64,000 nucleotides of DNA. Origin: Tubiluchus corallicola. Its lineage: Eukaryota; Animalia; Priapulida. The notes beneath the pieces are model-generated. The model saw only the letters and a program-made list of their open reading frames with translations, was not told where the DNA came from and did not search any database. Every line of letters starts with the position of its first letter. Within the stretch, counting starts at the first letter, position 1. A program made the position numbers and the translations under genes. The stretch spans positions 1,860,001 through 1,924,000 of the forward strand of contig JAQGDQ010000004.1 in assembly GCA_030141605.1 (NCBI GenBank). The letters are read 5' to 3'. Shown here piece after piece: positions 695 through 41,686 of the stretch.

Positions 695-1884
695 GCTACA
701 CTAAAATATAAATTAACCCAACAATGAATGTTTCAAATGCACAAAAATACATTTAAAAAACAATAAACTGCAATATTTGTGAAAAGAATGTGGGCACGAG
801 ATACCAAACATTCTTATGCCCGATTCGACAAATCATTCCGGGAGTTTTTACACAAAAATTAGCAGACTGGATCTGTAGTGGAGATGAAGCTCAATCTTTT
901 TTTGCAGATCAGACACACATAGGAAGCTGGAAATGTTTTTCAAAATTGTATTCTAATTAACGGCCAAATCCAATCCAAACATTGTATGTATGTATACATG
1001 TAACCTGCCTACACATTTTGAAAATACTTGAGCCACTAGTGCCATTTTCCTGCATAATACTTTAATCATGCAAATTTCATGTTTGAAATTCCATGTTTGG
1101 TTAATAAGTTTGAAAAAAAAGCAGCAAACATGATTAAAAATGAATTATAACAACATATGTACACCAACTAACTTGGGTTTTTTGCACAATCTTTTAAATC
1201 ATTCAAATCATCATAAAAAAATGTGGAACAAGATGCTATGCATCCTGCATGGTTCATAAAATTATAAGTGCATCCAACGACATCATGAAAAAGTGTATAA
1301 CAAAACTTTACTTACTTTTTACTACTTTTTGTGTAACAAAAATGACAGTGTACTATCCCTGTACATGTTAATAAAATTTATTTCTATTATATCTGGTTGT
1401 TTTCGGAGTTTTGCCTATTCAAAATTGTTCATTTCCTAACACATGTAAATAAAATGGTTTTGCATAACAAAGTTCGAAAATTGTGTGCAGCGGTAGAAAT
1501 GATACGCATGCAGTTGCCTATTAACAGCTGTTCCACATCCTCCAACACAAATGCTCTAGACACGACGAAGCACTACACTTTGGCTAAGAGTCAGCAACGA
1601 ATATTCAAGTTTGAAATTTCGAATCAAATTGAAATTCATTTGAAAAGACTTTTTATTTTAATTTGATTTGAACCTCAAATTATGAACTAAAATAATTAAA
1701 CGCACTATCTACTTTCGTTTCTTTGTCATTAAAATATTTCAAATATCATGTAATCACAACAGTTTAGTCATAATTTCTGCACAATATTTTTTAACAAATC
1801 ATTAATAGTTTCTGCAGAAAGACAAAAACAATATACACAACCTTTGCAAGCTGTTGTACACTGCAAATAAGTAGCTTGAATAAC

Positions 1885-6265: not shown

Positions 6266-12131
<5,866 letters not shown>

Positions 12132-16106: not shown

Positions 16107-19100
16107 ATGTATAGGAAAATTTTCCTGTTGCTATGTCTGCTGAGTTATTGTAAGTTTATTTGTTTTTTACATTTCGTGTCACCATTATATAATTTTTTAC
16201 TTTAGCCCTCGCGTAGTTAAGTCTAGTAATCCAAAGTCCCCAGCCAGGTATAAAATTAATGGCTTACAAATAAAAGGAAACAACAATATAGTATGTAATG
16301 TACAAACTACGTAAGGATAGTCATGATAAATTGGACACAAGGAAAACTATTCAGTCCATGCCTACTTTACTAGCTGAATATACCACTTCGCGTAAAAGTG
16401 AACAATGTGCGTATAAAAGTCGACGGATCAATTAGTAGGAAAATAGTAGGAGCAGCCATTCCTTATGGATATTTAGTGTAATGGCAGTCACCTACTCATT
16501 GTGCCATTAGCAACACCCTTACAGAGCCTTGAGTGATGATGGACAGTTCCTCTCTGAGCATGCCTAGTAATTGCTGACTGTGGAATTGTATTAACCTATA
16601 TAATCTAAGAAAGCTAGCTTAGGCAGTGTATCAGTTACTGTCAACACCGCCGCATTTGTAAATAGCCACATAGTTGTATCAATAAAATGTTTACTTTCAT
16701 ACACCTTCTGGTATTTATGCAACTAATATTACATTAGTTACAAGAGACGAACTAGCCGTAAGAGATAATATGGGATAATATGGCACTTAATTTTGCATCA
16801 TTTGAGATAGATCGAATGCTGCTGTATTTTTGATACGTTTAACCATATAGACTGTTTCTTTATTTATTGCACATTGCAAGACAATGTATAAGGGTTTGCA
16901 AAAATAAATCTGAAAACAATATGTTAGGTATGATTTAGGGCGACTCCGTTAATTCGTAATTCTTTTTACCTTGGGGTGCCTAGTACTAGCTTATTTTATA
17001 AGCCACTTAAATGATTCTTTACGTGAATACCTCTGTACTACCTGGCAGATCATGCAGGCTTATCAGACCCAAGATGACAATCTGGGTGGTTAACGTCTAA
17101 GTTTCCGACAGGGGGATGGAATTTATTTTCATATTCCCCAGCAATAATCACATATGGAAAAACATTCAAAACATAAAAGGGCCAGGCTCTAGGAATGAAC
17201 TTGATTATTGAGCGTAGACGATGACAGCCGAACAGTAGTATAATTAAAATGACGGTGCAGTACACCTGCAAAAACTAAAGCAAATGTGTGACTGTGTTAG
17301 AATATAGTATGTTTATAGTTGAAATAGTATAAACATAGTATATGTTTATAGTTGAAATAGTATAAAAATTTTGGTAAATTTTTTATGTATCGCTTATGAC
17401 TATTTATTGCAGGACAAGAACCTCAGTAATTATCAAAGATAATCTCCAATGTGAGACACTGAACAAGCAGAAATGCTTTAAGTAGCTTGGAATGCTTGCG
17501 CATGTTCCTTCAACTAGAGAATTAGCCATAGAGATTAATGGCAAGTAGATCGAGTATTGAAACTTGTACTCAACAACCATTCTCTATTATAAATGAAACC
17601 CGCCGTTCCATGTCTTTCTCAGCTTCAACTAACTCACCCTGACTGCTTGACTGTTCTTCTAGCCAGGGCCTATTTCAGCCTAGGCGAGGCCCGGGGAAGT
17701 GGGGGGGGGGGTGAGGCCCCATCGGGGGAGGAGGGCGGTGCGCCGGAGGCGGGTATGCCGGAGGCGGGTGCTACCGTGGTTGGCACCCAGAAAATTTTTG
17801 AACTGCTAGAACGCCGGAGAAGCATTTTCGAAAAGAAAATATGGAGGAGTTGTACAGTTGTTAAAGGAAAGAACAACTGAAAGAAAAACTGCTTTATTCT
17901 TAAAACAAGCCCAAGACCAGCCCTTAATACTTGTCAATACTAGCGCCTGCGGCAAGAGAGAGGGAGGGAGAGAGGCGGCAGTATGTTCGCATAAAGCAAA
18001 AAAATGTTACCTTGGTGCGAGGCCCCCTGAAGGGTGAGGCCCCGGGGAATTATCCCCACTCCCCCCCCCCTTGAAATAGGCCACGCTTCTAGCCCCCTGC
18101 TAAGGTTCATTATGTAACAAAAGCCTCATTCTGTAACAATGCAGCATTATTAATTTTATGTTAAAAAATGCTGTATTGTGTAACAAAGCACAAAATTGTA
18201 TCGCATTTTAATTTTTTTACCTCAAGTAACAACCATTATGCAACAACTCTTGCGTCATTATCTAACAATCATTATGTAACAAAAATGATGCATTATGTGA
18301 CAGGATGTCCATGGTCTATGGTCAGGTCTTGCCACAGTCTCGGTAACTGATGCTTACTCACGATCCTCTTCGTTGCTGTAGAACGACCCTGCACAAATGT
18401 GTCTGCGAGGTCACACTTCACTGTGATTTTTGTTTGAATTTCAGATTCGCTGCTGTTTTCTATATCTTCCAAATATTTAACTCCCATATCGTTTCGATAT
18501 TCCATTGCAGCTTTGACATACTGGCTTACTTGTTTCAATATTTCATTATTTAAGCTGGATACATACCCGTTTGTTACATTCCACTTTCTTATTTTAGTTA
18601 ATATGACACACTCAAACAAATAATAGTGCGTTGAATCTTGTTCTACACTACATAATGGACATCCTCAGTTATTAACATTCTTACAGTTTGCTTTTACTAC
18701 TATCATACTGGATCGCACTTTCATTAGAGCATTATAGTTGCTTTCAGCTCTAGATGTGGGTCTGACTATGCCTTGGTCTGGTTCAAACTGTGGCTGGTCT
18801 GTTGGGAATCAGGTCTGCTTGATGTCTCATCTACCAGTGGTCTGTCTGAGTTACCAAAGATCTATTATTGGCTGAGTGTGATTGGTAATAATTACACTGA
18901 GAATCGTTCTATGAGTAATTTATGACATGTCTGTCTAGGGACCTGATCTGTCTGAGATTGATCCATAAGTGGTCTGCTTGAAATTTGATCTAACCGAGGT
19001 CTTTTTTGTGGTTGGCTTATTTGAATCAGTTAGTTCCGGTTATATGATGGATTTATTATGACTGAGGTCTAATCTGCCAGCGGTCTGATCTGACTGGGTT

Positions 19101-22100
19101 TGATCTGATTGAACCAAAATAGAGAAATTGGACTCCTTTATGAGCCGCAATTTAGTCCGCATGCCATATGCAACGTGCTGCTTGTGATAGATCTTTTAAA
19201 AATAAATGTGTACAAGAATTACCCCAGCAACATGACCACGAACTATGGATCTGTATAGGATACACAATATAATTTTTCATTTTTCAGTTTCTTTTTATGA
19301 CAAGCCTAAATTCTAGCCGAACCAAAACTCTGGCAGATCACATCCCACCCCGATAAGAATACCCTCGACGCACCAAATCTCAGATTGCAGACCGAGGTGG
19401 AGCCAGATCATATCTAGAAGAAAAAGAAACTGAACCAGTACAATAATTAGACCACACCCACTCTGTGACAAGATCCAACCGCAAACCACAACCAAACCTA
19501 GGTTACATAATTTTGTTAGATAATGATTGTTAATTACTAAAGCAAAAATTGTCTAACGTAAAATTTGTTTTACATAATGACGAATTTTGTGATTGTCACA
19601 TAATGCTGCATTGTTATATAATGAGCCTTTGATACACAATGAACTTTGATATCTCTCAATATAATATTCTATGTCACATCACAGACGATGAAATAATTAT
19701 TATTAATTTGTAAAGCATAACAAACTTATTCTAAAATAATTTTGCTATTTGTGAAAGAACCAAATTTCCACAAATTTTTATCAAGTAATCCGTCTGTCAA
19801 GGCTTTTCTTGATAACTCAACAGAAACTTCAGCTAGCCTAGCTAACAGTTTAGATTATTAAACTGTGAAATGGCCCCGTTTCATTTACTGCCAAATCGGG
19901 TGCAGAAAACAAATAGTTCTTACTTTTTGTGCGTTTGGCGTCCAGTGAGTATTTGTCAATTAGCCATGCTGTTCCGAATGTGCCACTGCTGTTCAACTTT
20001 TCATTACGTGCGTCGTCTAAATTATATATAGAATGTTTGTAGTCGAGCTTAAATAAAAAAATCATAACCAATTAGCATGTGAAAGCTTATGTAATTATAG
20101 TATAAGGATCCGTTGTTAACAGTGAGATTATTCTTGGGTGTCTCAGGAATTATTGCATTTACATTTACTGTATGTATGCGAAACAGATGTTGTACTTAAA
20201 TTAAATGAATCCCCCTTGCAAAAAAATTCAGTGTAACTGCGCATTTTTCACCAGGTGTACTAAATTCACCCTAGTTTGTGTCATGCCGCAATGTGTAAGC
20301 TGTCAGTTCGTTGAATGTCTTACGCGCCCGTACGTAACGTTTCGTGAACAGAATTACCCCTAAAATCCAAATGTGTTCAGCTCGTCTGGCAAACTGAAAC
20401 CTAGCCTAGACGATATAAATACTAAGAGCCAAACGTTGGACATCAGACGCCTTGGTGTATTATATATTTCAACAGTAACAATAACAATAACAAGAAGACA
20501 TTAAATAGAATCGTTAATATAGACACAATAAACTTTTCTTGGACTAACTTATATGCACAGATTATGCCTGCAGAACTTCTTTCGTGCTGGTACGCGACTG
20601 TTATACAGAGAATTTTTTGTTATACAAGAGCACAGTTTGCATTAATAATTCACTAAACAAATGCGACTTTAAAAACAACATGAATTATCAAAATGCCTCT
20701 ATAAAAATTAGGAAATGCTCTAGTTTTCCTAATCGCCTGACAAAGAAATTGTATTACACTCAAGTTACCATTTTTTCTTTTTTCTCTTATAGGTACTGGG
20801 CAGTGTCAAACACCTACTAGGTGCCGCTACCATGGCGACATACTACCTGCACCATATGGAGATTGCAGATATTTTGTCAAATGCATTCATCCACACACGT
20901 ACGTGGAAATGACGACATGTTGGCCTTGTCCACCCGGGACTATATTTGACCCATGCATTTTGTTATGCGTAGCCGATAACTACTACAATCGACTTGCAAG
21001 CGGATGTCCCTTAGGTTTCAATCATCATGATTTTTCACTATGTAACCGCGCCCAACAGGATGTCTATCCTACAGGATATGTACCCAAAACAAATTTTTAC
21101 GACACTGAAGGATACAATTATTTGGGCTATGACCACGATGGCTTTGACCGAGATGGCTACGATTATCTCGGCTACAATAGAGATGGCTACGACCGCCTGG
21201 GTTATAATCGTGATGGTTATGATCGCAGCGGCTATAATAAGTTAGGGTACGATTATGATGGATACGATATTTACGGATATAATCGCAATGGTTTCGATCC
21301 AAATGGCTACGACAGTAGTGGCTATGATATTGATGGTTACGATAGATATGGTTATGATTATTACGGTTATGATCATGACGGATTCGACAAGGAAGGCTAT
21401 AGCCGAGATGGGTGGGATCGTAATGGCTACAACCAGGCAGGATATGACAGCAGTGGGTATGACCATAATGGTTATGATATTTATGGCTATGACCAAAACG
21501 GATATGACTATGAAGGTTATGATCATGATGGTTACAATATCTATGGCTATGATAAAGATGGTTATGATAGAAATGGATACGATCACAATGGCTTCAGTCG
21601 TGATGGCTGGGATCATTATGGATATAATAGAGATGGGTATGACAGTAATGGCTATGATCGTGATGGTTATGACAGAGATGGTTACAGCCTTGATGGATGG
21701 GATAGATATGGGTACGACCGCAATGGATATGACACTGAAGGTTATAATCATGATGGTTTTGATATCTATGGTTATGATCGTAACGGTTATAACAAAAATG
21801 GGTATGATCAAGATGGTTATAGCCGTGACGGATGGGATAGATATGGGTATGACCAAAATGGATATGACATTGAAGGTTATAATCATGATGGTTTTGATAT
21901 CTATGGTTATGATCATAACGGTTATGATAAAAATGGGTATGACCATGATGGCTACAGTCATGATGGATGGGACCACTATGGTTATAACCGGGAAGGATAT
22001 GACAATCAAGGCTATAATAAAGATGGTTACGATAAAAATGGATATGATCGCAATGGCTACAGTCGTGATGGCTGGGATCATTATGGCTACAACAGAGATG

Positions 22101-25100
22101 GGTATGACAAAAATGGTTACAATCATTATGGCTATGATCGTGATGGTTATGACAAAAATGGGTATAGCCTTGACGGATGGGATAGATATGGGTACGACCG
22201 CAATGGATATGACATTGAAGGTTATAATCATGATGGTTTTGATATCTATGGTTATGATCATAACGGTTATGATAAAAATGGGTATGACCACGATGGCTAC
22301 AGTCATGATGGATGGGACCACTATGGTTATAACCGGGAAGGATATGACAGTCAAGGTTATGATCGCGATGGCTATAATAAAGATGGTTATAATAGAAATG
22401 GATATGATGCATATGGTTATAGTCGGGATGGCTGGGATCATTACGGTTATAACAGGGAGGGATATGACAGTCAAGGATATGATCATGATGGTTATAACAT
22501 CTATGGCTATGATAAAGATGGTTATAATAGAAATGGATATGATCAAGATGGTTATAGCCATGATGGATGGGATAAATATGGATATGACCGAAATGGATAT
22601 GACATTGAAGGTTATAATCATGATGGTTTTGATATCTATGGTTATGATCGTAACGGTTATGATAAAAATGGGTATGACCATGATGGCTACAGTCATGATG
22701 GATGGGACCACTATGGTTATAACCGGGAAGGATATGACAGTCAAGGTTATGATCGCGATGGCTATAATAAAGATGGCTATAATAGAAATGGATATGATGC
22801 AGATGGTTACAGTTGGGATGGTTGGGATCATTACGGTTATAACAGGGAGGGATACGACAGTCAAGGATATGATCGTGATGGTTATAACATCTATGGCTAT
22901 GATAAAGATGGTTATAATAGAAATGGATATGATGCAGATGGTTACAGTCGGGATGGTTGGGATCATTTTGGTTACAACAGAGATGGATACGACAAAGATG
23001 GTTACAATCATTATGGTTATGACCATAATGGATATAACAGGGCTGGATATGATCATGAGGGCTATAATCAGTTAGGATACGATAACTATGGCTATGATCA
23101 TGATGGTTACGACCTAGATGGTTACAGCCTTGATGGATGGGACAGATATGGGTATGGCCGAAATGGATATGACATTGAAGGTTATAATCATGATGGTTTT
23201 GATATCTATGGTTATGATCGTAACGGTTATGATAAAAATGGGTATGACCATGATGGCTACAGTCATGATGGATGGGACCACTATGGTTATAACCGGGAAG
23301 GATATGACAGTCGAGGTTATGATCATGATGGCTATAATAGCTATGGCTATGATAAAGATGGTTATAACAAAAATGGATATGATGAAGATGGTTATAGCCA
23401 TGACGGATGGGATAGATATGGGTATGACCGAAATGGATATGACATTGAAGGTTATAATCATGATGGTTTTGATATCTATGGTTATGATCGTAACGGTTAT
23501 AATAAAAATGGGTATGACCACGATGGCTACAGTCATGATGGATGGGACCACTATGGTTATAACCGGGAAGGATATGACAGTCAAGGTTATGATCGCGATG
23601 GCTATAATAAAGATGGTTATAATAGAAATGGATATGATGCAGATGGTTATAGTCGGGATGGTTGGGATCATTACGGTTATAACAGAGAGGGATATGACAG
23701 TCAAGGATATGATCCCAATGGTTATAACATCTATGGCTATGATAAAGATGGTTATAATAGAAATGGATATGATCAAGATGGTTATAGCCATGATGGATGG
23801 GATAAATATGGATATGACCGAAATGGATATGACATTGAAGGTTACAATCATGATGGTTTTGATATCTATGGTTATGATCGTAACAGTTATGATAAAAATG
23901 GGTATGACCATGATGGCTACAGTCATGATGGATGGGACCACTATGGTTATAACCGGGAAGGATATGACAGTCAAGGTTATGATCGCGATGGCTATAATAG
24001 CTATGGCTATGATAAAGATGGTTATAATAGAAATGGATATGATCAAGATGGTTATAGCCATGACGGATGGGACAGATTTGGGTATGACCGAAATGGATAT
24101 GACATTGAAGGTTATAATCATGATGGATTTGATATCTATGGTTATGATCGTAACGGTTATGATAAAAATGGGTATGACCATGATGGCTACAGTCATGATG
24201 GATGGGACCACTATGGTTATAACCGAGAAGGATATGACAGTCAAGGTTATGATCGCGATGGCTATAATAGCTATGGCTATGATAAAGATGGTTATCACAA
24301 AAATGGATATGATCAAGATGGTTATAGCCATGATGGATGGGACAGATATGGGTATGACCGAAATGGATATGACATTGAAGGTTATAATCATGATGGTTTT
24401 GATATCTACGGCTATGATCATAACGGTTATGATAAAAATGGGTATGACCATGATGGCTACAGTCATGATGGATGGGACCACTATGGTTATAACCGGGAAG
24501 GATATGACAATCAAGGCTATGATCGCGATGGCTATAATAAAGATGGTTACGATAAAAATGGATATGATCGCAATGGCTACAGTCATGATGGCTGGGATCA
24601 TTATGGCTACAACAGAGATGGATATGACAAAAATGGTTACAATCATTATGGCTATGATCGTGACGGATATAACAGGGCTGGATATGATCATGAAGGGTAT
24701 AATCGGCTGGGATACGATCATCATGGCTATGATCGTGATGGTTATGACAAAAATGGGTATAGCCTTGATGGATGGGATAGATATGGGCACGACCGCAATG
24801 GATATGACATTGAAGGTTATAATCATGATGGTTTTGATATCTATGGTTATGATCGTAACGGTTATAATAAAAATGGGTATGACCACGATGGCTACAGTCA
24901 TGATGGATGGGACCACTATGGTTATAACCGGGAAGGATATGACAGTCAAGGTTATGATCGCGATGGCTATAATAAAGATGGTTATAATAGAAATGGATAT
25001 GATGCAGATGGTTATAGTCGGGATGGTTGGGATCATTACGGTTATAACAGAGAGGGATATGACAGTCAAGGATATGATCCCAATGGTTATAACATCTATG

Positions 25101-28100
25101 GCTATGATAAAGATGGTTATAATAGAAATGGATATGATCAAGATGGTTATAGCCATGATGGATGGGATAAATATGGATATGACCGAAATGGATATGACAT
25201 TGAAGGTTACAATCATGATGGTTTTGATATCTATGGTTATGATCGTAACAGTTATGATAAAAATGGGTATGACCATGATGGCTACAGTCATGATGGATGG
25301 GACCACTATGGTTATAACCGGGAAGGATATGACAGTCAAGGTTATGATCGCGATGGCTATAATAGCTATGGCTATGATAAAGATGGTTATAATAGAAATG
25401 GATATGATCAAGATGGTTATAGCCATGACGGATGGGACAGATTTGGGTATGACCGAAATGGATATGACATTGAAGGTTATAATCATGATGGATTTGATAT
25501 CTATGGTTATGATCGTAACGGTTATGATAAAAATGGGTATGACCATGATGGCTACAGTCATGATGGATGGGACCACTATGGTTATAACCGAGAAGGATAT
25601 GACAGTCAAGGTTATGATCGCGATGGCTATAATAGCTATGGCTATGATAAAGATGGTTATCACAAAAATGGATATGATCAAGATGGTTATAGCCATGATG
25701 GATGGGACAGATATGGGTATGACCGAAATGGATATGACATTGAAGGTTATAATCATGATGGTTTTGATATCTACGGCTATGATCATAACGGTTATGATAA
25801 AAATGGGTATGACCATGATGGCTACAGTCATGATGGATGGGACCACTATGGTTATAACCGGGAAGGATATGACAATCAAGGCTATGATCGCGATGGCTAT
25901 AATAAAGATGGTTACGATAAAAATGGATATGATCGCAATGGCTACAGTCATGATGGCTGGGATCATTATGGCTACAACAGAGATGGATATGACAAAAATG
26001 GTTACAATCATTATGGCTATGATCGTGATGGATATAACAGGGCTGGATATGATCATGAAGGGTATAATCGGCTGGGATACGATCATCATGGCTATGATCG
26101 TGATGGTTATGACAAAAATGGGCATAGCCTTGATGGATGGGATAGATATGGGTACGACCGCAATGGATATGACATTGAAGGTTATAATCATGATGGTTTT
26201 GATATCTATGGTTATGATCGTAACGGTTATGATAAAAATGGGTATGACCATGATGGCTACAGTCATGATGGATGGGACCACTATGGTTATAACCGGGAAG
26301 GATATGACAGTCAAGGTTATGATCGCGATGGCTATAATAAAGATGGCTATAATAGAAATGGATATAATGCAGATGGTTATAGTCGGGATGGTTGGGATCA
26401 TTACGGATATAACAGAGAGGGATATGACAGTCAAGGATATGATCGTGATGGTTATAACATCTATGGCTATGATAAAGATGGTTATCACAAAAATGGATAT
26501 GATCAAGATGGTTATAGCCGTGACGGATGGGACAGATTTGGGTATGACCGAAATGGATATGACATTGAAGGTTATAATGATGATGGCTTTGATATCTATG
26601 GTTATGATCGTAATGGTTATGATAAAAATGGGTATGACCATGATGGCTACAGTCATGATGGATGGGACCACTATGGTTATAACCGAGAAGGATATGACAG
26701 TCAAGGTTATGATCGCGATGGCTATAATAGCTATGGCTATGATAAAGATGGTTATCACAAAAATGGATATGATCAAGATGGTTATAGCCGTGATGGATGG
26801 GACAGATATGGGTATGACCGAAATGGATATGACATTGAAGGTTATAATCATGATGGTTTTGATATCTACGGCTATGATCATAACGGTTATGATAAAAATG
26901 GGTATGACCATGATGGCTACAGTCATGATGGATGGGACCACTATGGTTATAACCGGGAAGGATATGACAGTCAAGGTTATGATCGTGATGGCTATAATAG
27001 CTATGGCTATGATAAAGATGGTTATCACACAAATGGATATGATCAAGACGGTTATAGCCGTGATGGATGGGACAGATATGGGTATGACCGAAATGGATAT
27101 GACATTGAAGGTTATAATCATGATGGTTTTGATATCTACGGCTATGATCATAACGGTTATGATAAAAATGGGTATGACCATGATGGCTACAGTCATGATG
27201 GATGGGACCACTATGGTTATAACCGGGAAGGATATGACAGTCAAGGTTATGATCGCGATGGCTATAATAAAGATGGTTACGATAAAAATGGATATGATCG
27301 CAATGGCTACAGTCATGATGGCTGGGATCATTATGGCTACAACAGAGATGGATATGACAAAAATGGTTACAATCATTATGGCTATGATCGTGACGGATAT
27401 AACAGGGCTGGATATGATCATGAAGGGTATAATCGGCTGGGATACGATCATTATGGCTATGATCGTGATGGTTATGACAAAAATGGGTATAGCCTTGATG
27501 GATGGGATAGATATGGGTACGACCGCAATGGATATGACATTGAAGGTTATAATCATGATGGTTTTGATATCTATGGTTATGATCGTAACGGTTATGATAA
27601 AAATGGGTATGACCATGATGGCTACAGTCATGATGGATGGGACCACTATGGTTATAACCGGGAAGGATATGACAGTCAAGGTTATGATCGCGATGGCTAT
27701 AATAAAGATGGCTATAATAGAAATGGATATGATGCAGATGGTTATAGTCGGGATGGTTGGGATCATTACGGTTATAACAGAGAGGGATATGACAGTCAAG
27801 GATATGATCGTGATGGTTATAACATCTATGGCTATGATAAAGATGGTTATAATAGAAATGGATATGATCAAGATGGTTATAGCCATGATGGATGGGATCA
27901 ATATGGATATGACATTGAAGGTTATAATCATGATGGTTTTGATATCTATGGTTATGATCGTAACGGCTATGATAAAAATGGGTATGACCAAGATGGTTTC
28001 AGCCATGATGGATGGGACCACTATGGTTATAACCGGGAAGGATATGATGGTCAAGGCTATGATCATGATGGTTATAATATCTATGGCTATGATAAAGATG

Positions 28101-29365
28101 GTTATAATAGAAATGGATATGATGCAGATGGTTACAGTCGGGATGGTTGGGATCATTTTGGTTACAACAGAGATGGAGACGACAAAGATGGTTACAATCA
28201 TTATGGTTATGACCATAATGGATATAACAGGGCTGGATATGATCATGAGGGCTATAATCAGTTAGGATACGATAACTATGGCTATGATCGTGATGGTTAC
28301 GACCTAGATGGTTACAGCCTTGATGGATGGGATAGATATGGGTATGACCGAAATGGATATGACAGTGAAGGTTATAATCATGATAGTTTTGATATATATG
28401 GTTATGATCGTAATGGTTACGATAAAAATGGATATGATAGAGATGGTTATGATAAAAATGGGTATGATAGAGATGGCTACGATAAAAATGGATATGGTAG
28501 CGATGGCTACGATAAAGATGGTTATAATAAAAATGGCTATGACAAAGATGGATACAGCCTTGATGGATGGGACAGATACGGCTACAACCGAAATGGATAT
28601 GACTATGAAGGTTACGATCATGATGGTTATAATATCTATGGTTATGGAAAAGATGGTTATGATAAAAATGGATATGATCGTGATGGATATAACAAAAATG
28701 GAAATAATCGATATGGCTATGGTCGTGATAACAATGACGATGATGACGATGATGATGATGACGACGATGATGATGACGACGATGATGACGATGATGGTGT
28801 TGATGATGATAACGACGACAAGAATTATTATCGAACATTTGGTCAAGACGGATATGACTCATCTGGTTACAATCGTTATGGCTATGATCGCAGAGGATAT
28901 GATCGTGATGGCTATGACTACAGTGGTTATAATTATGAAGGTTACAGCCGCAAAGGATATAATCACGATGGGTATGATAAAGAAGGTTATAATCAAGCTG
29001 GATATGACAGTGAGGGATACAGTCGGGATGGCTGGGACCAAGATGGATATAACAAATCGGGATATGACAAAGAAGGCTATGACCGTGATGGGTATGATGT
29101 CTTAGGTTTTGACCGTAGTGGCTTGGATCGTTATGGTTATAATAAAAATGGTTATGATAGATACGGCCGTGCTCGCGACAATTATAACCAAAACAAAAAT
29201 TATCACAATGAGGACGATGATAACGATAACGATGATGACAATAATTACAATACTCGCAAATACAGTACTCGTTACAGATATAGAGGCAGCAGCTATAAGC
29301 AAGTTAGAAGAAAACAAAGACCTACGAAATCTCGCTACAATGTTGCATCTAATTCTGGAGATTAG
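16107..29365 (+). CDS. Giant (~2,871 aa) probably secreted protein: CBM14/peritrophin-A-like chitin-binding domain + G[YFW][DNS]xx pentapeptide repeats + poly-Asp + basic tail
   Basis: Exon 16107-16149 (MYRKIFLLLCLLSY+T|GTAAGT, phase 1) joins the strong acceptor ttttttctcttatAG|20793 in frame: MYRKIFLLLCLLSYCTGQCQTPTRCRYHGDILPAPYGDCRYFVKC...CPPGTIFDPCILLC...GC. The frame stays open to TAG at 29365. Possible 5'UTR splice aag|GTAAGA 15783 to ttttgcAG|16001. The large exon is well supported; the first exon is inferred. Confidence 0.85.
17664..18085. mobile_element. Non-autonomous hAT-type MITE (422 bp)
   Basis: TIRs CAGGGCCTATTTCA / TGAAATAGGCCACG (12/14 match), perfect 8-bp TSD CTTCTAGC (17656-17663 and 18086-18093), GC-rich subterminal gaggccc repeats with poly-G/poly-C. 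Confidence 0.85.
18102..19647. mobile_element. Foldback-like DNA element (~1.55 kb) with long degenerate inverted repeats
   Basis: 18105 gttcattatgtaacaaaagcctcattctgtaacaatgcagcatta is the approximate reverse complement of 19601-19644 taatgctgcattgttatataatgagcctttgatacacaatgaac. Similarity continues inward (cattatgtaac words vs gttacataat at 19502). Inner tctgatctg-like words (18770-19110) are mirrored by cagatc words (19310-19500). Confidence 0.6.
20414..20446 (+). promoter_or_regulatory. Candidate TATA box + initiator (alternative proximal promoter of the repeat-protein gene)
   Basis: TATAAA at 20414-20419 with TCAG(AC) at 20443-20446 (A 31 nt downstream of the TATA T), followed by ATG 20553 and an in-phase donor G|GTACGC at 20590. 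Confidence 0.4.
21110..29165 (+). repeat. Coding 15-bp tandem array (GGN TAY GAY NNN NNN) with 105/135/195-bp higher-order units
   Basis: Direct reading of DNA and translation; interrupted only by the Asp tract region at ~28730-28840. Confidence 0.97.
28733..28820 (+). repeat. (GAT/GAC)n trinucleotide repeat encoding poly-Asp
   Basis: aatgacgatgatgacgatgatgatgatgac... encodes ND(n)GVDDDNDDK. Confidence 0.95.
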
Positions 29366-29459
29366 CTGTAACAATTAAGACCTATTTATTCATCACACAT
29401 TTATTAAAACCGAACATGTGGCTAATGCTCTGCGAAACGTTATGGTAATTATAAATTTT

Positions 29460-29465
29460 AATAAA
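29460..29465 (+). other. Candidate polyadenylation signal of the repeat-protein gene (second AATAAA at 29621)
   Basis: AATAAA ~95 nt after the stop codon. Confidence 0.45.
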
Positions 29466-31665: not shown

Positions 31666-33253
31666 TGCCAGTCACACGTAGTTTAATAACTGTCTTTTTG
31701 CAACTTCTGACACGTGTTCTTTTTTCGCAATTTGACAAAGAGGACGCATCCTTTTCTTTCTAATGCGCATGTGGTTTTCTCGTAAATTGATGGACAAAAA
31801 GAGTGCATGCATTTGCTGCTAATGCACGCGTGGTTTTCTAGTAATTTGATTAGACAACAAGGACGCATAATTTTCTTGCTAATGCACGCAAACGTCTGTC
31901 TGTCCATCTACCTTTTCTCGCATTGGAGCAAGGTAGGAAGTTGATATTTCGCACAGAGGTAGCGCATTTTTCAAGCTCGGTGTCAAATAATTTTTGGCCC
32001 CATAGGCGCGGATTTGATTTTTTACAGTTTTTTTAAGATCTGCACAGAACAATAGACGATGTAATAAAAATATGCTTGCGCTGTAATGGGTTTATGCTTG
32101 CCGCGATTATAGAATTATTGGTTCTACTATTGTACTGTTGCTACTATTTCTTGGTCTTAGAATTAATGTAGGAAGTTGATACCTCGCAGAGATGTAAGGC
32201 ATCATTCAAGCTCAGAGTCAACTATACAATTATCGGCCTGACTGTCCACTTGTCTCTTGCCACTTTTTCCCAGCTTTGGAGTAACCTAGAAAGTTGGTAT
32301 CTCGCACAGTGGTAGGACATGCTTCAGACTCAAAGCCATAAATTTTGGAGTCAACTGGCACAGAATTTTATTTTTATAGTTATTGCAGATTCGCATAAAG
32401 CAAGTTAGCATATTGAAGTTTTGCAGCTGGTAAGCCCACCCCGCTCAGGTGCACGTGGTCGATAAACACTAATACAGCTAAGTGATTTTTGATCCATTAG
32501 CAGGGAATCAGGTAACAACGATCACTAATGCGCGTACAGTCTCCATGTACATTGTTTAATAGATAATTTTAGACAATTTTACAATTTACATTTCATATGT
32601 TCGATGCTGGGGAAAGGTTAAACTTTTTTTGTTAAAGCCTGTGGTAAGAGATGCATTGCAAATTAAGTTGTATTTGCTTTGGCATTGTGTTATTAGACAC
32701 TGTTTTCGTCTTACGCTTAACTTGTGTATTGTGATCGTCAGCTAAATCGGTTTATTAAAAATTGCTTGTCGGTCCCTGTTATAGTACAGCTGGTAAGACT
32801 GGTATACAGCTAGTTTAGCGGCAAAATTCATAGGGGGGAAAATGTTCACAAAAGCAGGATCACGCATGCTTTTCGAAGGTTCGCGTCGCTCTTGCGAAAA
32901 GGAAAACATTTTGCGAAACCTTTCGTCCTTTTTAGAAAGCACGCGTGCTTTCCGAAATCTCGCATCTTTTAACTAAATCACGCGTCATTTGTTTTGGGAA
33001 GGCGGAATCAAGAAAAAGAAAGCTTGAAGTTTTTTATCCAATCATATTCTCAGAAAAACGATACGTCATTTCCAGAAAGATGCGTGTTTCTCACAAAAAA
33101 ACACGTCCCTTTTATCCAATGAAATTGCGAGAAAAATGACTCGTGCTTTTGCAGAAAAAGCACTTAGATAGTGGGCGGGAATAGTAAATATAGGTGAAGT
33201 TAGGAAATAACACGTGCAGCTATTATAACACTTGAATGCACGTGTAAATGGCA
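31666..33253. mobile_element. Old DNA element with long degenerate inverted arms
   Basis: gtgccagtcacacgtag..taataactg (31666) vs reverse complement of the 33253 end, gtgccatttacacgtgc..taatagctg. Arrays of cacgcg/gacgca words at 31700-31900 are mirrored at 32860-33160. Interior has three copies of 'gaagttgatat.tcgcacag' (~31937, 32172, 32289). Confidence 0.4.
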
Positions 33254-33547: not shown

Positions 33548-34441
33548 TCATGCTCTTGCTCTACATTTTACAATATTTCTAAAGGCTGCTTTAAATTTGT
33601 TATTAGAAAATGCATATACTATTGGATTTGCAGCACTATTGCAATAGCCAAACCACAAAATTATGTCTACAGTAGTTTCTCCTATACCTGTTGCACGTCC
33701 AAAGTTAACAACTGAAAAGAAAGAAAACGGGCCCCAGCAGGTGACAAAAACAATGGTTATTATAATTAAAACCTTGGTAGCTTTCATTTCCATGACGTTT
33801 CTGTTGCACATCTGACCCTGATTGCAAACTTGTAAGATTTGTCGCCGAGCAGTTCTCCATATGACAGCATAGACCAAAAGTATCACAACTGTGGGCACAT
33901 AAATCATTAGAATGGCACTCCACAAATACAAACTTTCTATTTCAAAATAAAGAGCAATGATAAATGAATCAACTACAGAGAAACACCATACAAAAAATAA
34001 TGTGCCAGCTATTGTTTGCCTTGTGACATAGACATTATACTTATATGGATGTAAAACAGCAAAGTACCTTTCAGCAGCGATAAAACAGAGGTGCAAGATG
34101 CTACAATGAACTGTACAAACAGAAATAATTATTCTTGCTGTATAATATGTAGGGGATATAATATAAAGTCGATGAGTCCCATAAAGAATGACATGAACTT
34201 TCATTGGCGTTGTCAGCCCTACTATCAAATCTGTCACTGCAAGCGATACAATCAAAGCATTCATTTTTGTTTGTAGCTGTTCGTTAACATAAACTGCAAC
34301 TAGAACTGCCAAGTTTCCAAGAATTACAACAACACAAGTCAGTCCATATAACACAGCAATAACAACAGTAAAGAGTCTATCGCTAACGTTCGCTGTCTCG
34401 CTGTTTAACCACACTGTAGTCCAATTACTACTATTAGACAT
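33548..34441 (-). CDS. Class A (rhodopsin-like) GPCR with intronless CDS, orphan, amine/TAAR-like superfamily
   Basis: 297 aa; N-glycosylation sequons in the N-terminus; seven hydrophobic segments with GN (TM1), SLAVTD (TM2), AERY (TM3, DRY variant), W (TM4), P..Y (TM5), CWGPF (TM6), NSAANPIVY (TM7) and helix 8 FKAAF. Probable 5'UTR intron (donor cag|GTAAGT at 35148, acceptor at 34466-34465). Confidence 0.93.
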   Translation of the reverse strand: MSNSSNWTTVWLNSETANVSDRLFTVVIAVLYGLTCVVVILGNLAVLVAVYVNEQLQTKMNALIVSLAVTDLIVGLTTPMKVHVILYGTHRLYIISPTYYTARIIISVCTVHCSILHLCFIAAERYFAVLHPYKYNVYVTRQTIAGTLFFVWCFSVVDSFIIALYFEIESLYLWSAILMIYVPTVVILLVYAVIWRTARRQILQVCNQGQMCNRNVMEMKATKVLIIITIVFVTCWGPFSFFSVVNFGRATGIGETTVDIILWFGYCNSAANPIVYAFSNNKFKAAFRNIVKCRARA

Positions 34442-36742
34442 TTTGCTATTAAATTTTATCTGAACTGTAATAAATATACTATTACTTGAAACTGCACAAT
34501 TTGGTATTGCTGTTATCCAAAATTTGAATTTTTCTTGCTATCATTTATTCACATGAGCACAATTCCATTGTTACGGAATCAACTATATTTTGTACCAATA
34601 CACAAAAACATATCGCAATTGTAATTAACATAGTAATGTAATAGTCATTAACTAGCAATACTGTTGGCAGTTTTTGACAGTTACTAAAAAGAAAGTGGTG
34701 GCACTAGCACAATCATTATTGCACGACCTAACATCTTCCCAGTATAGCTGTTGTCATTTTTATTTGACCTATTTGTCATCCTTAGTGACAAAAAGCTGAA
34801 AACAAACAGAAAAATCAATGCAAACACATTAACTTGCCATGCTGAACATGAGTAATAAAGCTTGATATATCACTACCGTAATGCAAATATCATACAGAAC
34901 ACCATAAGCAAGGAAATAACAATGGCTTGGGGACTGCATTAAATGACTCTCCAGTTTCCATTTAACGGCTGGTTTTAAGTAATTCTAACCCTTGTAACAA
35001 TATCAAAGTGCAGCAGAGAAGAGCACTGAATAAGTGTCAAAAAGTGCTTCATCAAAAAAAATTAAATAAGCTAAACTATGCATTGGTCTGTTATGCCTGA
35101 TTTAACTAGACGAGAATTTCAAAACAAATATAATTTCTACTAACTTACCTGACGTTCCTTGCAGTCCATCAGCAGGAATCAACTTAAGCACTACCTTGAC
35201 TGCTGTGCTTTACTTGTATCCAAGTTCCACTTGTTTTGGTACATTTTGCAATTCTCGTAGCAAAATAAATAAATAAGCCTGACAAATTTTGTTTGATTCA
35301 ATGCTAAATTTTCTACATACCAGACATTAAAATTATACTTTTAAAATTAAAATAATACTTCAGAATGAGTTTATGTTGATGATATGTATGCAGTAGAAAT
35401 TTCTGTACTGGCAAGAAATTTGCGATATAAGATACAAAAAATCTACTAAGTGGAATAACAATGACCATGCTCAATTGCAACATTAAACTGTTAGTTGTAT
35501 GTGAACAAAATAATCTAGAAGCCCTGAAAATTTTAAATAATTGTTCAGAATGTAACATATCAAACCTTAACCCCAACAAATACAATAGAGCTATTCTGAC
35601 AGACTTAGTAGCTAAGATGATCCAAAAACATATCACTAATTAGTAATTCACAACTCAAAAAAGGCCTGCGAGACATCTGCGGGATATGTTGAAGGATCAT
35701 GGGTTCGATTTCATCTCTTCAAGTTTCTCATCATATTGATCGGGACTGCCAACTAAGTGAGATGCGCAAGGCTTCCACATTAAATTTTGATTCCATAATA
35801 GATTATTTGTTGATTCAGCAGTAGTTTGATGTAATCAGCAGCAATAAACTATTATTTGTGTTTTTTGTACTCCCCTAGTAAAAGGTGTAGATTACATCTG
35901 CTCCATGGCCTGCAAAGTCGCTATTGTTAATTATACCAAATTAACCAAAAATCAGTCACATTTTTCCAGCGTCTGGACCTGCTTTACAATGAAATGTACA
36001 ACATATAGGTCCGCCCAATTTTCATTACATGTGAACTGTTCGTAGTCCTCAGTTTGTTCGTTCAGTTTGTGCTAGTAGCTTGCGCTAACAGGCTAGATGA
36101 GTGAGGTACTTAGCAGGCCACAAGTGCCTTTGCTAATAAATTTAATTGCAAAAAAAATAATTCTACATATTTGTATGACTTAGTTTCTCTGCAAAACTAA
36201 GAATTAGTTTTGCAGAATTAGTTTCACTGTGCAAATGATGACCTAAGAAAAGACCTCAGAATATCCTCAGAAACTGCTGCATGCAAAAGACTAGGCAGCA
36301 GTGAGTTGAGATTTTAAGCATCTTTGGCTCATCATACATTAATATGGTAAAAACACACTAACAGTAGCAGTAGTAGTACTAATAAATTTATTATCAGAAC
36401 CTGTGCAGCTATTGGATAGAGAAAGTTTTCAAGTAAGAAAATGCGGAAAATAAATGTTTTGTTTTCATTAACCGAAATTTCGCACCAACGTATAAATACC
36501 CTATATTACAGTAAGTAACCTGCCAACTTTACTTTAATTATCAAAAAAAGAAAAAAGAAATAACTAATATTTGTATATTTATTCACCTTAGCATACCACA
36601 AACATTGCTATCTCACTAGAACATCACCAATAATAGTAACTGGTTATACGTGGTTTAAAAAAGGAATGTAAATGTAAACATAAATAAATAAATATAGTTT
36701 AAAAATTGATGATTCCCTCGTTGTGCATAAGTGAAACTGTAT

Positions 36743-39700
36743 TCATTCGATGCCATGTGCAAAGATCATCACTAGTCCTGGGTTAAGTATCATATCGTCT
36801 GGTACATGTTGGTTGTCACAGCTCATCACAATCACTGCCTGTTTCCCTGCAAATAATTACCTTACAACAAAACTTGAAATCAAAAGTTGATAGTTATTAC
36901 GGCCATCACTTTCCTGATCATCTGACATGTGAGTGTCTCAAAGTATAGGAAGCTTGATGAGGGAAGCTTTAATCTACACAAGAAAAAATTACAACTATAA
37001 TAACTACACAATCAAATCATTGCTAGACTGATGTACTTAGAAGACATGCAACAAAATCTGCTGGTAATGTATTTTTAATCTCTGTAACTCAAGAAAAGAA
37101 ATTAATTCTTAATTTACCTGGTACCCGCTTTGTGACATAATTGTCATACTGCCTACGATTCATTTGCCGTGTTTCTAGAGTGTTTAGACCGGGTGGCCAT
37201 TTCCGTTCGTGAGCATTTTCCATGAGCTGGTTGAGTATGTATGGCGGGCATCCTGATTCAGCAAGAGACCTTTTAATTACAGCCTGCAAGACAGCATCTG
37301 GTGTGGATATCATGCCACCCCAGCGTGTCACCCTTGCTGGTTGAAGTGACTGAGCCCATCTAAAAATTCAGGAGACGTTCAAAACCAAGCTACTGTTTCC
37401 AAACATATTATGCCAAGGCTGTAAATATTGCTTTTATTTTGGCATTAATAGTTTTTGAGAAATTAAACTGATTATCCATTTAGAATTTACTCAAATAAAA
37501 TATGCTATAAGAAACTTATGATTCTCTAAAATTCGCATGCTTTACATGCTAGAATCTGAATAAAAAATTTACAAAGAATTATCAGTGTAAGTAGAATCAC
37601 AATCCTGCACACCAACCAATAGAATTTATTCCAGATGAATTTTAATTAAGTGTTTAAAAACACTTCTGACAAAAGTTTGCTAAGCTAACAGAAGATTAAT
37701 CTTAAACAGATTTAGGAAGGCATTCATAAGTGGAATAAATCATTTTTAGTGTTGCATAAAATGTGTTTAAGTTACAGGAACTGCTGGGTAATCTGATTAC
37801 TATATGAAACATATACAAACCTGACAACTTCATCATTTTCCATTTGGTCAGTAAGAGCTCTTACAGAGGGATTCGTCGTTCTCATTGCACGCATAAAATC
37901 CTGTAAAAATACTTAATTACACTACTCTGGGAAAGCCAGATACTTTTTCATGATTTTATTACTAAAGCATGCAATCGATGATTCAGATTATCACAGGAAA
38001 AATCATTGCAGGTTAATATGAGTACTGCATGTAATACAGAATATCAAAAATATTTATCCTTGGTAATTACACAGATTATACAAGAACACAATTTAATATA
38101 AATCCACAGTAACACGTGTTGCTTTAATTTTAAATGTCAGTCAGGTCATCTGCATTTTTTTCCATTTTCAAGTTCTAGGCTCATTTGACAAAAATATGTT
38201 TAATCCACATTTAGAGGTTTACCTCATCATCTATTCTTAGTACCTACTGATTTTACTAAAATAGACGTTTCCTAAATCAATATTACACACACCTGCTGCA
38301 CAAGTATATTTGAACAACTTATAAGAAAAGTGACCAGTATTTAGTCTTTCTTTGTATCTTTCAAAGCAAGGTGCTCTTTTGCTTAATCAAATATTCGGCT
38401 GCTAACTTTCTGGGGACAAGCCATAAAATTTAGTAATAGTTGTTTTTTCCTGTTTGTGGAAACACATTAGCGGGTGTTAGAAACTTCACACCAGCTTTCA
38501 TATTTGCGTGCTTAAAGTTATTTGCTTTGACTTCTACCAAATTTGTATAAATACTATGTATAAATATACATCAGAAATATTAAACAAATAAAAAGTTTGA
38601 AAGCTCGTGGACAGATGCAAAAGGTTGCATAATTTACATTCAGTGTGCCATATAATAATCATGTTTTCGTCATGAAACACTGTAATTCTACCACGAAAAG
38701 CTGCAAACATACCTTTAGCAATTGTAATTCCTGTCTTTGTTCATTTAATTGAGTCTTGTGGTTCAAAAGCTCCTGTTGTAGATCTGCTATTTGCGCCTGT
38801 GTTGATACCACAATGGCTCTCAACTCTCGAACACAATTATGATCCTGTAAAAGCATTACAATCTAAAAAACATTCTAGTATAATACTGCACAAAAATTTC
38901 AAGCAGGACATAAAATATAAGACAAAAAATATAGTAAAAATTTAACTTATTGTGGCTAAAATATCCCCAACACATCTTTAGAGGCATCCCTGAAATCGCA
39001 GCTGTTTTTGCAGTATCAAACTGGAACTTGAAATTATTAAGATTAAGTCGAGATGAATAAATTATGAAAGCAGTTGTCATGCAATTGCTAGCAAGCCTAA
39101 GCAGAATTAATAGTTAGGAAGTATGTTTTTCAATGCTAAATCCTTGTCTATGTCTTTTACATTGTTTGTGTTACAAATCTGCTTTGGTATGACAAACCAA
39201 CAAAATAACAAAATTACTGTTTAAACATTTACAAACTATGAATTTATTAGTATGTAGTTCACCCATATAAGCAATATAATAATGAAATAAAAAATTACAA
39301 AGAAAATTTAAAATACAATACTAAACTTAGCATGTTAACAGACACAATTGAGAAGTGCATTTATGCTGTTTTTTTTGTTACCAAAGGTACCAGGACAAAA
39401 GTGCACAGCACATTATAGAAGGAGTTAAATATAAATCCAGCTGCATAAAAATTCAAGAGTAAAAAACCAATGACCAAATTTATATACACACCATTTAGAA
39501 TAACATTATGAGAATTTGTAAGTTATGTAACTGAGCTTAAAACTTATTCTAACTTCAAAACGAAACTCTGTAAGCTACTAGAACACTAGTGGGTTCCCCC
39601 TAGAATTAACTAGCAAGAGGTTAAACTTCATTTATTAAAATACATTTACAGTTTTTTAAACTTTCATACAATCTGGTCAACAATTTAAATTTAGTCTACT

Positions 39701-41686
39701 AATTTGGGCCTTCAAATCTTTCTTTTCTTGCAACTGTTTTAATAAAAAAGTATCATATTTTAAAATACTTAACTATTGTTGCTATCCAATTAAAGTTTGT
39801 ATAGCCTAACTTTCATTTAGAAAGCAACCTGCTATCATAATTGCAGTACTTCGTGTAACACCTAAAACAGATCTGATATAAAAATGTGTAAAAAAACTAA
39901 CCTTTACTTCATCTTTGGGTATAACCAATCCGCAGCCATTGTCACATTCAGTTGGCCTCTTTGGGTTAAACTGGCATTGGTCAAGATGATGAGATAGGTG
40001 ATCGAGCTTCACAACAGTAGAACATCCATGCACAGCATTGTTACAATTAATATGAAGTCTTGAAAGAAGATTACGCAATATACGAGGAACAGGTTTCAGC
40101 TGATTTGACAAAATGGTCTGAAAAATCAATGAAGCTTTTCATAGTTAAAAGTAGAAAGAGAAGCCCTATCTAAAATGTAAAAAGTATTTTGGTTTGGACT
40201 TAACAGACCGTAGTTCAATTTGGTCTTACTCATTATCGAGTTGCAGGAAAACGACTATTAAAAATTTTATTTATAAATCAATAAATAGCACAAAATAGTT
40301 CAGAAAAGCAGTTAAAGTTACTGTGTAGATCTTCCACTGTTTCGTTTTGAAAAATATTTGTGTTTAAGATCTGAACTCCTCTTCCTCGTAAACAAAAATA
40401 TGGGCGCGAGAAGGCTCTGTCCTTGTGCAATTTAAACAGCAGACTCAGTCAAAACTTTGTAGCCTGTATAAACAAACTTGACTTGGTACACACTTTGTAA
40501 ATACACAATGTTCAGCATTCAGTTCCATTACTGCATTGTAATAGTACAATTTAATCATTCCCTATTCTTCTATATGTAAGCAAAATCTTGTAAACAATTA
40601 AAATAAATCAGCAATAATTTAATTGATTGCGGTACCTGTCTATCAACAGGACATGTTTGCTGTCTAGACAACCATTCGCTGATGCAGCTGGAGCAGAACG
40701 CATGTTCACACTGTGGTGCCTAAAAACGAAACAATAAGAAGTACAATAATTTTTCAATTGCTTCAATAGCCTTGTGACATTTTTGCTTCCTAATATACAT
40801 TAATCCAATCGCTGATAATTCTTTTATAAAATAGATAGGCTATGTTTACTTTTGGATTCCCAAAAAACATGACTAAACTGATTGCAGCAACTGCTCAAAT
40901 TGAAACCAAATTGCAGCTATAACCTGCACAATTGACATATATGTCATACAGTGCACCCAAAACTGATCGACCACATGTTAAGTAAATGTGGTGAAAATCC
41001 TGATGCAATTTTGTGTCCCTTCTCGCCATCATTGGGTATTTCTGATGAACAAACAAACTACAACAGTACCCTCATCCACTAAAAGTACAGTGGATCCAAT
41101 GGGAAGAATCTATGTACCAGTTATGTGAAACTATCTGGTTCAAGCATAAAACTACATTTAAAATAAATGTACAGTGTGCAACATAAGATGAAGATAAGTT
41201 GAAATGGAATGATCAAGTAGATGTGTAGTAAAATAAACAATAAACAATGAAAAACAAAAAGCTATTCTAAAGCCATAACTTTACATAAACTAGTGCATTT
41301 AGTCAGTCTTACCTATTTTAAAATGCATCTGCTTTAAGGCATCATAAATTTAGTAAAAAAATAATTTTACAAAAAAGCCAGACAGGAAACAGATGTAGCA
41401 AAATAACATAAATGAACAAAAAGCCGTTACAATTTAAAATAGAACCTAGTGCATTTAGTCAGTGTAACCCAATTTTACATGTATCCCATTCAAGGAGACG
41501 TAAATTTTAGTAAAAAAACAATTAAGTAAGAAACAAAAGCAAGTAAGTAACAGCTACTAAACAAGTTTTATGAAAGCACCTGCAATACAGGCCTACCTGC
41601 AATGGATCCTCCAGGACCCCACTGCATATTGGGCAGAGAAGTTCCTCATCTACCTCTCCACGGAATCGCCCCACATCGTAACCCAT
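36743..41686 (-). CDS. RNF41: E3 ubiquitin-protein ligase NRDP1 (RING finger protein 41), 7 coding exons, 315 aa
   Basis: Exons 41686-41597, 40719-40636, 40117-39902, 38844-38713, 37900-37821, 37359-37118, 36846-36743; all GT-AG and in phase. MGYDVGRFRGEVDEELLCPICSGVLEDP, CEHAFC..CISEWL..CPVDR, VTRWGGMISTPDAVLQ, NAHERKWPPGL, PGLVMIFAHGIE*. Confidence 0.97.

Follow-up and report, generated by a model that had tools for sequence, protein, structure and literature searches.

The window analysed in this study, a 64-kb stretch of contig JAQGDQ010000004.1 of the priapulid Tubiluchus corallicola (positions 1,860,001 to 1,924,000), contains a gene whose main exon encodes a giant array of five-residue repeats (pentads) of the form G-[YFW]-[DNS]-x-x. 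The protein sequence and the five-residue register of this array are under purifying selection, because similar units within it differ far less at replacement than at synonymous sites and their lengths change in steps of whole pentads. The reading favoured here, to which we give about an even chance, is that the gene specifies a secreted and anchored structural rod that is hardened through its tyrosine and histidine residues.

Gene structure and the pentad array

All coordinates are positions within the window and refer to the forward strand unless marked (-). The gene comprises the following elements:

16107..16149 (+), likely first coding exon of 14 codons plus 1 nt, with the n-region and hydrophobic core of a predicted signal peptide and a GTAAGT donor next to it; splice inferred from DNA alone
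16150..20792 (+), inferred intron of 4,643 nt, phase 1, ending in a polypyrimidine tract and AG, with sequences that resemble branch points at 20729 and 20737
20793..29365 (+), exon 2, 8,573 nt, with an open frame to TGA
20804..21043 (+), CBM14/peritrophin-A-like module with 10 Cys, from Cys spacing and a sub-threshold Pfam match
21110..28714 (+), array 1, 507 in-register G-[YFW]-[DNS]-x-x pentads, from the translation
23432..26161 (+), 1,365-nt (91-pentad) block present as two nearly identical tandem copies, either a recent unequal crossover or an assembly artefact
28736..28795 (+), Asp20 run with mixed GAT/GAC codons, within an acidic stretch that spans 41 residues and has a net charge of -23
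28841..29167 (+), array 2, 21 pentads, from the translation
29210..29239 (+), second acidic (Asp/Asn) patch, from the translation
29255..29362 (+), basic Arg/Lys/Tyr C-terminal tail; the final 40 aa include 12 R/K and 6 Y
29403..29465 (+), candidate polyadenylation signals ATTAAA at 29403 and AATAAA at 29460, of little weight in AT-rich DNA

The stop-free frame extends from 20741 to 29365 (2,874 codons, 0 stops), and the remaining five frames contain 10, 679, 13, 513 and 14 stops. In base shuffles of the array (n=200), the longest open reading frame (ORF) reached 183 codons. A previous reading of the same DNA, made from the sequence only, had described a single exon of about 8.57 kb with an unbroken frame, a signal-peptide exon and about 530 pentapeptides, together with a long Asp run, a short second repeat block, a second acidic patch and an Arg/Lys/Tyr-rich tail. 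The exon measures 8,573 nt and contains no stop, the two arrays hold 507 + 21 = 528 pentads, the four remaining segments are all present, and a signal-like first exon is predicted at 16107. The first 36 codons of the exon, said to lie outside the ORF track, are also accounted for, as 36 full codons precede the first GTG start.

When the mini-exon at 16107-16149 was joined to the exon at 20793 in phase 1, the frame remained open and specified 2,871 aa. Among the four upstream candidates (ATG-started, phase-1 mini-exons ended by GTRAG), only that at 16107 was hydrophobic (3.6 versus at most 1.11). In the resulting N-terminus a basic n-region is combined with a hydrophobic core, and small residues occupy -3/-1 of a likely cleavage site after Gly17; past this N-terminus no segment was hydrophobic enough for a membrane anchor (19-residue hydropathy maximum 1.24). 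The protein is likely to be secreted, and the gene may contain extra small exons. The predicted mature chain has 2,854 aa (338 kDa, pI 4.37), including 572 Tyr, 145 His, 642 acidic and 280 basic residues; Gly, Tyr, Asp, Asn, Arg and His account for about 80% of the chain, of which the pentad array makes up 88%. A GC-rich island (17680-18100) lies within the inferred intron, and a 49-bp inverted match links 18102-18150 and 19600-19647.

Array 1 covers residues 121-2655, and its register is unbroken through 507 pentads. The pattern G[YFW][DNS] was fitted by 492 of these, Gly came first in 504/507, and position 2 of the Gly codon was invariant (507/507) with all four bases occurring at position 3. 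The array divides into 54 segments, of which 32 contain nine pentads, 10 contain eight and 5 contain twelve. Each segment opens with a Ser-pentad and then a Trp-pentad; in the array 53 of the 53 Trp-pentads scored directly follow a Ser-pentad, against 9/223 in homologues. The higher-order units differ in length by whole pentads only. A comparison of similar units (155 non-independent pairs among 43 distinct units) gave 0.233 synonymous and 0.034 replacement changes per site (pN/pS 0.146), and none of the 529 Tyr codons had turned into a stop. The open frame and the low pN/pS support the previous reading of the locus as a real coding gene, and show it to be under selection.

That the locus is non-functional at this size, whether because the array is satellite-like or mis-assembled or because the exon is not joined to that at 16107, is considered very improbable. 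The duplicate of the 1,365-nt block is identical over 1,232 nt and then shows three mismatches, with a third, more diverged copy downstream, and such an exact internal duplication would suit an artefact. The block reflects either a recent crossover or an assembly error, so that mis-assembly might account for 91 of the 507 pentads; 416 are left without the duplicate. Two other frames are open over long stretches as well, which is a consequence of the periodicity of the array, and the exact ORF was not found in the protein collection searched. Against an artefact stand the pN/pS, the Tyr codons free of stops, the canonical splice signals and the 416 pentads that stay.

The repeat family and its predicted fold

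Homologues were searched for with the N-terminal region at E<=0.001 in two length classes, which returned 157 matches of 1,580-5,030 aa and 682 of 30-1,579 aa, with identity typically 44-62%. The comparison set consisted of 240 proteins, namely the best 120 of the 157 and the best 120 of the 682, and array composition was compared over the 238 homologous arrays of at least 10 pentads (2/240 were shorter and were dropped). In the non-animal matches listed, the pentads are fused to UvrD helicases, exonucleases, kinases, TrbI/VirB10 and zinc ribbons or occur in unannotated Firmicutes giants, and fusion to so many bacterial domains suggests a portable spacer or binding rod. The best shorter matches are mostly long pentad arrays on UvrD-type helicases, with some on exonuclease, kinase, TrbI/VirB10, Sel1, vWA/OmpA and zinc-ribbon domains. 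Archaeal hypothetical proteins also carry G-[YF]-[DN]-x-x pentads, and the repeat groups with unnamed bacterial and archaeal clusters in the Atlas comparison (0.91, with low recognition).

All 25 named animal proteins among the matches listed contain a tyrosinase domain and bear the name 'kielin/chordin-like'; most also have VWC and VWD. Such tyrosinase-VWC pentad proteins occur in molluscs, Lingula (a brachiopod), chelicerates, a tunicate, amphioxus, a chimaera, a sturgeon and the coelacanth. In the three animal proteins that were mapped, short pentad arrays flank the tyrosinase domain on both sides. The animal matches outline a conserved protein with tyrosinase domains, many VWC, often VWD and short G-[YF]-[DN]-x-x arrays; no description of an animal tyrosinase-VWC-pentad protein was found in the literature searched.

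The repeat is no private low-complexity tract: it belongs to a pentad family that is widespread in bacteria, archaea and animals and is predicted to fold, a kinship that the sequence-only reading had missed. No model in Pfam, NCBIfam or PHROGs describes it. PF05287 (PMG protein) scored 34.7 bits over the whole protein against a cut-off of 29, with no single stretch passing, and this score is likely compositional because bacterial pentad proteins match PF05287 too. The window protein was unmatched by PF25296 (decapeptide repeat region, cut-off 45 bits), for which three bacterial pentad proteins scored 17.8-40.2 bits. The pentapeptide-repeat families PF00805 and PF01469 gave no Pfam match either; PF01469 is a mycobacterial pentapeptide solenoid and a different family (PMC9663297).

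The window array follows the rules of the family, with Gly at position 1, an aromatic residue at 2, Asp/Asn at 3, Arg/Lys commonest at 4 and an acidic residue or Asn at 5. Its 507 pentads in register are five times the longest run among the 240 listed matches, which was 101 pentads (largest total 143, in proteins of up to 5,030 aa). Moreover, His-bearing pentads make up 25% of the window array against at most 17% in any of the 238 homologous arrays. Tyr occupies position 5 in 19% of its pentads (animal median 16%, non-animal 2%), and Phe occupies position 2 in 5% against 38-43% in pooled homologues, some non-animal arrays being all-Tyr there. A composition classifier placed the window array with neither the animal nor the non-animal group. 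None of the 240 listed matches combined the pentads with PF01607 or the CBM14 loop motif, and five CBM14 proteins from a full-library search contained 0-1 tandem pentad pairs. The statement that no named protein has this architecture therefore holds among the matches examined.

Structure prediction with AlphaFold2 (AF2) used 40 pentads and a 57-row alignment (10 window stretches and 47 homologues). The predicted local distance difference test (pLDDT) score was 95.3, with all five models at 94-95, and the predicted template modelling (pTM) score was 0.60; without an alignment, a 50-residue pentad stretch gave a pLDDT of 77-89. DSSP assigned to the model neither a helix nor any strand of at least 3 residues, only isolated beta-bridges. 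High local and moderate global confidence would suit an elongated chain of repeated turns, and an ordered, turn-rich fold is predicted for the array. No structural match was found via Foldseek, VIA-align (48,161 chains) or BFVD, a result to be read with caution, as such models align poorly. Lacking strands and a PDB fold match, the model differs from the beta-solenoid of the PF00805/PF01469 proteins. General geometry bounds the length of such a rod at about 0.1-0.9 micrometre, from a compact solenoid to full extension.

A proposed anchored structural rod and its alternatives

In the favoured reading, the N-terminal CBM14-like module would anchor the protein to chitin or another matrix polymer, and the 507-pentad array would form a long ordered rod whose fold would be built by the Gly, aromatic and Asp/Asn residues of positions 1-3. 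Positions 4-5 would face outward and would have been retuned in the lineage (His in 25% of pentads, Tyr at 19% of fifth positions, and Phe of the family mostly exchanged for Tyr/Trp), which would provide a periodic surface where Tyr and His could be cross-linked by oxidation or could coordinate metals. Electrostatic pairing of chains, or the binding of Ca, may fall to the acidic runs and the basic tail, and the array would grow by unequal crossovers that change it by whole pentads. Selection on positions 1-3, kinship with the pentad family and enrichment of His and Tyr over the family count in favour of this rod. Gly-Tyr-rich proteins with basic Arg/Lys/Tyr tails have been reported as shell framework proteins, the Gly-Tyr part being described as taking part in cross-linking (PMC3896809). 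The bodies and tails of these shematrins and KRMPs, together with the pairing of pentads and tyrosinase in animals, provide supporting analogies. A bolder extension, tentative and clearly less probable than the rod itself, is that an ancient and hitherto undescribed five-residue repeat fold of bacteria, archaea and animals was expanded here into a single-chain rod of hundreds of nanometres, tethered to chitin at one end, on which His, Tyr and Trp recur in a programmed pattern of 45/90 residues. Animal structural proteins would then include a further, new class beside collagens, silks and coiled coils, and the rod would be a dedicated cross-linking substrate, the counterpart of the tyrosinase-flanking arrays.

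The core of the N-terminal module reads C25-x13-C39-x5-C45-x14-C60-x12-C73-x12-C86, with C19, C57, C69 and C98 in addition. Its six-Cys spacing of 13-5-14-12-12 agrees with the CBM14/peritrophin-A (PF01607) pattern, for which the wider consensus is 13-20, 5-6, 9-19, 10-14 and 4-14. The peritrophin-A pattern given for EHEP is 15-5-9-12-(5-9) (bioRxiv 2023.06.04.543649). In the full-library search with the Cys region, five of the six matches were multi-CBM14 proteins (clam, insects and one unnamed source). The top three Atlas matches to the module were all CBM14 (0.77-0.80, a lead only), and the best PDB sequence match was Blo t 12 (E=0.14). A profile built from 30 matched domains scored the module at 37.4 bits against at most 8.1 in 1,000 shuffles, a comparison that is partly circular. 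In addition, about 13 residues of the module (window 20860-20920) are close to a 131-aa metagenome ORF with three internal repeats and without a Pfam family (E=4e-4), a match that is probably chance or a spurious ORF. The assignment of the CBM14 fold is likely to be right, and chitin binding by the module is less sure than the fold.

Several observations weigh against the anchored rod. PF01607 scored 17.6 bits, below its gathering cut-off of 22.1 (E=0.0042, model positions 6-48 of 53). The residue two places after C73 is Ala75, where F, H, W or Y occurs in 27/30 domains of five related proteins, counted over internal repeats that are not independent. Chitin binding by CHIT1 depends critically on Trp465 (PMC5459812), and Avr4 depends on Trp100, with CHIT1 Trp465 aligning with Avr4 Tyr103 (PMC6128652); in the Cys-register alignment, CHIT1 Trp465/Avr4 Tyr103 falls on Ala75 and Avr4 Trp100 on Leu72. 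Furthermore, EHEP and Der p 23 have been described as having the peritrophin-A fold without chitin binding (bioRxiv 2023.06.04.543649). AF2 has been reported to give confident yet unrealistic solenoids for near-perfect repeats (PMC11795689), and the net charge of the array (-334) also fits a disordered polyanion. The orthologue search gave no match at E<=1e-10, and the gene, its splice and its secretion were read from the DNA alone. Binding residues are reported to vary across the CBM14 family (PMC6128652; bioRxiv 2023.06.04.543649), and Trp58, Tyr78 and Tyr79 nearby might act as substitute aromatics. Owing to the sub-cut-off score and the Ala at the position of the stacking aromatic, chitin binding is not established. 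The Cys spacing and the kinship to CBM14 proteins put forward by the sequence-only reading stand, but the Pfam cut-off was missed, and of the chitin anchoring proposed with them only the CBM14-related N-terminal module is supported.

The degenerate module also bears on a quite unlikely alternative, in which the protein belongs to mucus, the gut lining or defence: its CBM14-like head would bind a non-chitin ligand or microbes and its array would sequester metals or polyphenols, with no load borne. A lone CBM14 without the usual aromatic would fit this role, and the peritrophin-A domains of EHEP are reported to precipitate phlorotannin without binding chitin (bioRxiv 2023.06.04.543649). However, the array has almost no Thr or Pro and a single N-glycosylation sequon, unlike mucins, and a sink needs neither a strict register nor the predicted fold.

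The bias of AF2 on repeats (PMC11795689) leads to a slimmer chance still, namely that the fold is an artefact and the array is disordered: with Tyr/Arg/His in a sticker-and-spacer arrangement, it would act as a coacervate, or as the precursor of a glue, and would set when pH or metal changes. The six residue types that form about 80% of the chain and the lack of any helix or strand of 3 or more residues in DSSP would be in keeping with disorder. The pKa of His lies near secretory pH, which also counts for a coacervate. Nevertheless, 507 pentads contain no out-of-register indel, Gly is first in 504 of them, and identical positional rules recur in the 240 listed homologues, from bacteria to vertebrates; the strict register and the shared rules argue for a stereochemical constraint. 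Moreover, the AF2 failure published concerns beta-solenoids of perfect repeats (PMC11795689), whereas the pentad model is no beta-solenoid and has no regular strands, and the homologous repeats have diverged at positions 4-5.

The acidity of the chain raises a further alternative, a chitin-tethered biomineral template in which the carboxylate array and Asp20 would concentrate Ca, and carbonate or phosphate would be nucleated or oriented on them in the manner of Pif. We consider this unlikely, although the pI of 4.37 and the 642 acidic against 280 basic residues would favour it, the combination of chitin-binding and acidic parts follows the logic of Pif (PMC11291548), and the basic Tyr tail is like those of shematrins and KRMPs (PMC3896809). 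No VWA match was found in the 2,874-aa frame. Asp at position 3, present in 63% of 12,065 homologous pentads, is shared family-wide, even in helicase fusions, and thus does not indicate a mineral adaptation. Compared with homologues, the array carries only a moderate excess of negative charge (net -0.65 vs -0.46 per pentad), and nothing ties the protein to mineral. The Ca/metal binding and mineral templating suggested previously are unsupported, as composition alone lay behind them and the VWA that defines Pif is absent.

Surroundings and comparison with known proteins

The window is AT-rich (GC mostly 0.30-0.39) and has the character of spliceosomal animal DNA. The following other genes were recognised:

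10499-10801 (+), exon matching prostaglandin E synthase 2 (PDB match, E=3.5e-9)
33548-34537 (-), intronless rhodopsin-family G-protein-coupled receptor (7tm_1, E=2.5e-36) of about 296 aa, counted from its first Met; it lies 4 kb downstream of the pentad gene and is convergent with it
37092-40138 (-), E3 ligase exons with USP8_interact (E=3.5e-44) and a weak Sina/TRAF zinc finger
50229-61628 (+), armadillo-repeat gene of several exons, with ARMC8 among the PDB matches

None of these neighbours is functionally suggestive for the pentad gene. The USP8_interact gene is presumably of the RNF41/NRDP1 type. We take a Lys/Glu-rich, Met-started exon at 446-700 (-), which has no supporting match, to resemble the N-terminal extension of valyl-tRNA synthetase, and a fragment at 44022-44336, without a Pfam match, to look like a decayed DNA-transposon zinc finger. 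A 97-bp tandem repeat in three copies of 95% identity (55536-55827) lies within the armadillo gene region; a 59-bp array of 2.7 copies (31730-31889) and a perfect 44-bp duplicate (51098-51185) were also found.

Matrix proteins that join a chitin-binding head to a repetitive body are familiar from invertebrates, and the repeats in them are generally taken to be disordered. The window protein, as its sequence suggests, would work like such a chitin-anchored matrix protein while lying outside the Pif/BMSP, shematrin/KRMP and classical pentapeptide families. Its body is drawn from an unmodelled repeat family that extends from bacteria to the coelacanth, with a predicted fold that has no solved match. 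No description of the pentad repeat or of the architecture was found in the open literature searched, although proteome supplements for shell, tube and jaw could hold related peptides. Were the structure of a pentad fragment solved, hundreds of unannotated proteins would gain a defined fold. If the rod is real, it would be a load-bearing or metal-hardened animal rod and a possible template for designed materials; if the protein is disordered or unexpressed, it would be another lineage-specific low-complexity matrix protein.

With the peritrophin-A/CBM14 proteins (CHIT1 ChBD, Avr4, tachycitin, Blo t 12 and EHEP), the module has in common the six-Cys core and the Cys-Pro-x-Gly-x-x-Phe loop, whereas it carries four extra Cys and has Ala and Leu at the CHIT1/Avr4 aromatic sites. 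Pif contains a chitin-binding domain and an acidic mineral-binding part and is defined by its VWA domain (PMC11291548). The window protein, predicted to be secreted and to combine chitin-binding and acidic parts as Pif/BMSP do, differs in having one degenerate CBM14 and an 88% pentad array, and the absence of VWA rules out membership of that family. Shematrins and KRMPs share with it a Gly-Tyr-rich body and a basic Arg/Lys/Tyr tail, but have GnY (n=2,3) repeats and RKKKY/RKYKY-type ends, the KRMPs being about 10 kDa (PMC3896809). The window protein is a strict single-Gly pentad protein, strongly acidic, of 338 kDa and with a CBM14-like module, and membership is ruled out here by the lack of GnY repeats and of the RKKKY/RKYKY signature. 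The classical pentapeptide-repeat families (PF00805, PF01469) are ruled out by the lack of a Pfam match and of strands in the model.

The bacterial and archaeal pentad proteins have the unit and the positional preferences in common with the window array, which is longer (507 vs at most 101 pentads), richer in His, Tyr and Trp, and attached to a CBM14 module and a signal-like peptide (0/240). The animal tyrosinase-VWC-VWD proteins use the same G-[YF]-[DN]-x-x pentad in short arrays with a similar rate of Tyr at position 5. Theirs are 3-13 pentads broken by linkers in multidomain enzymes for which CBM14 is not listed, whereas the window protein is without a tyrosinase or VWC domain.

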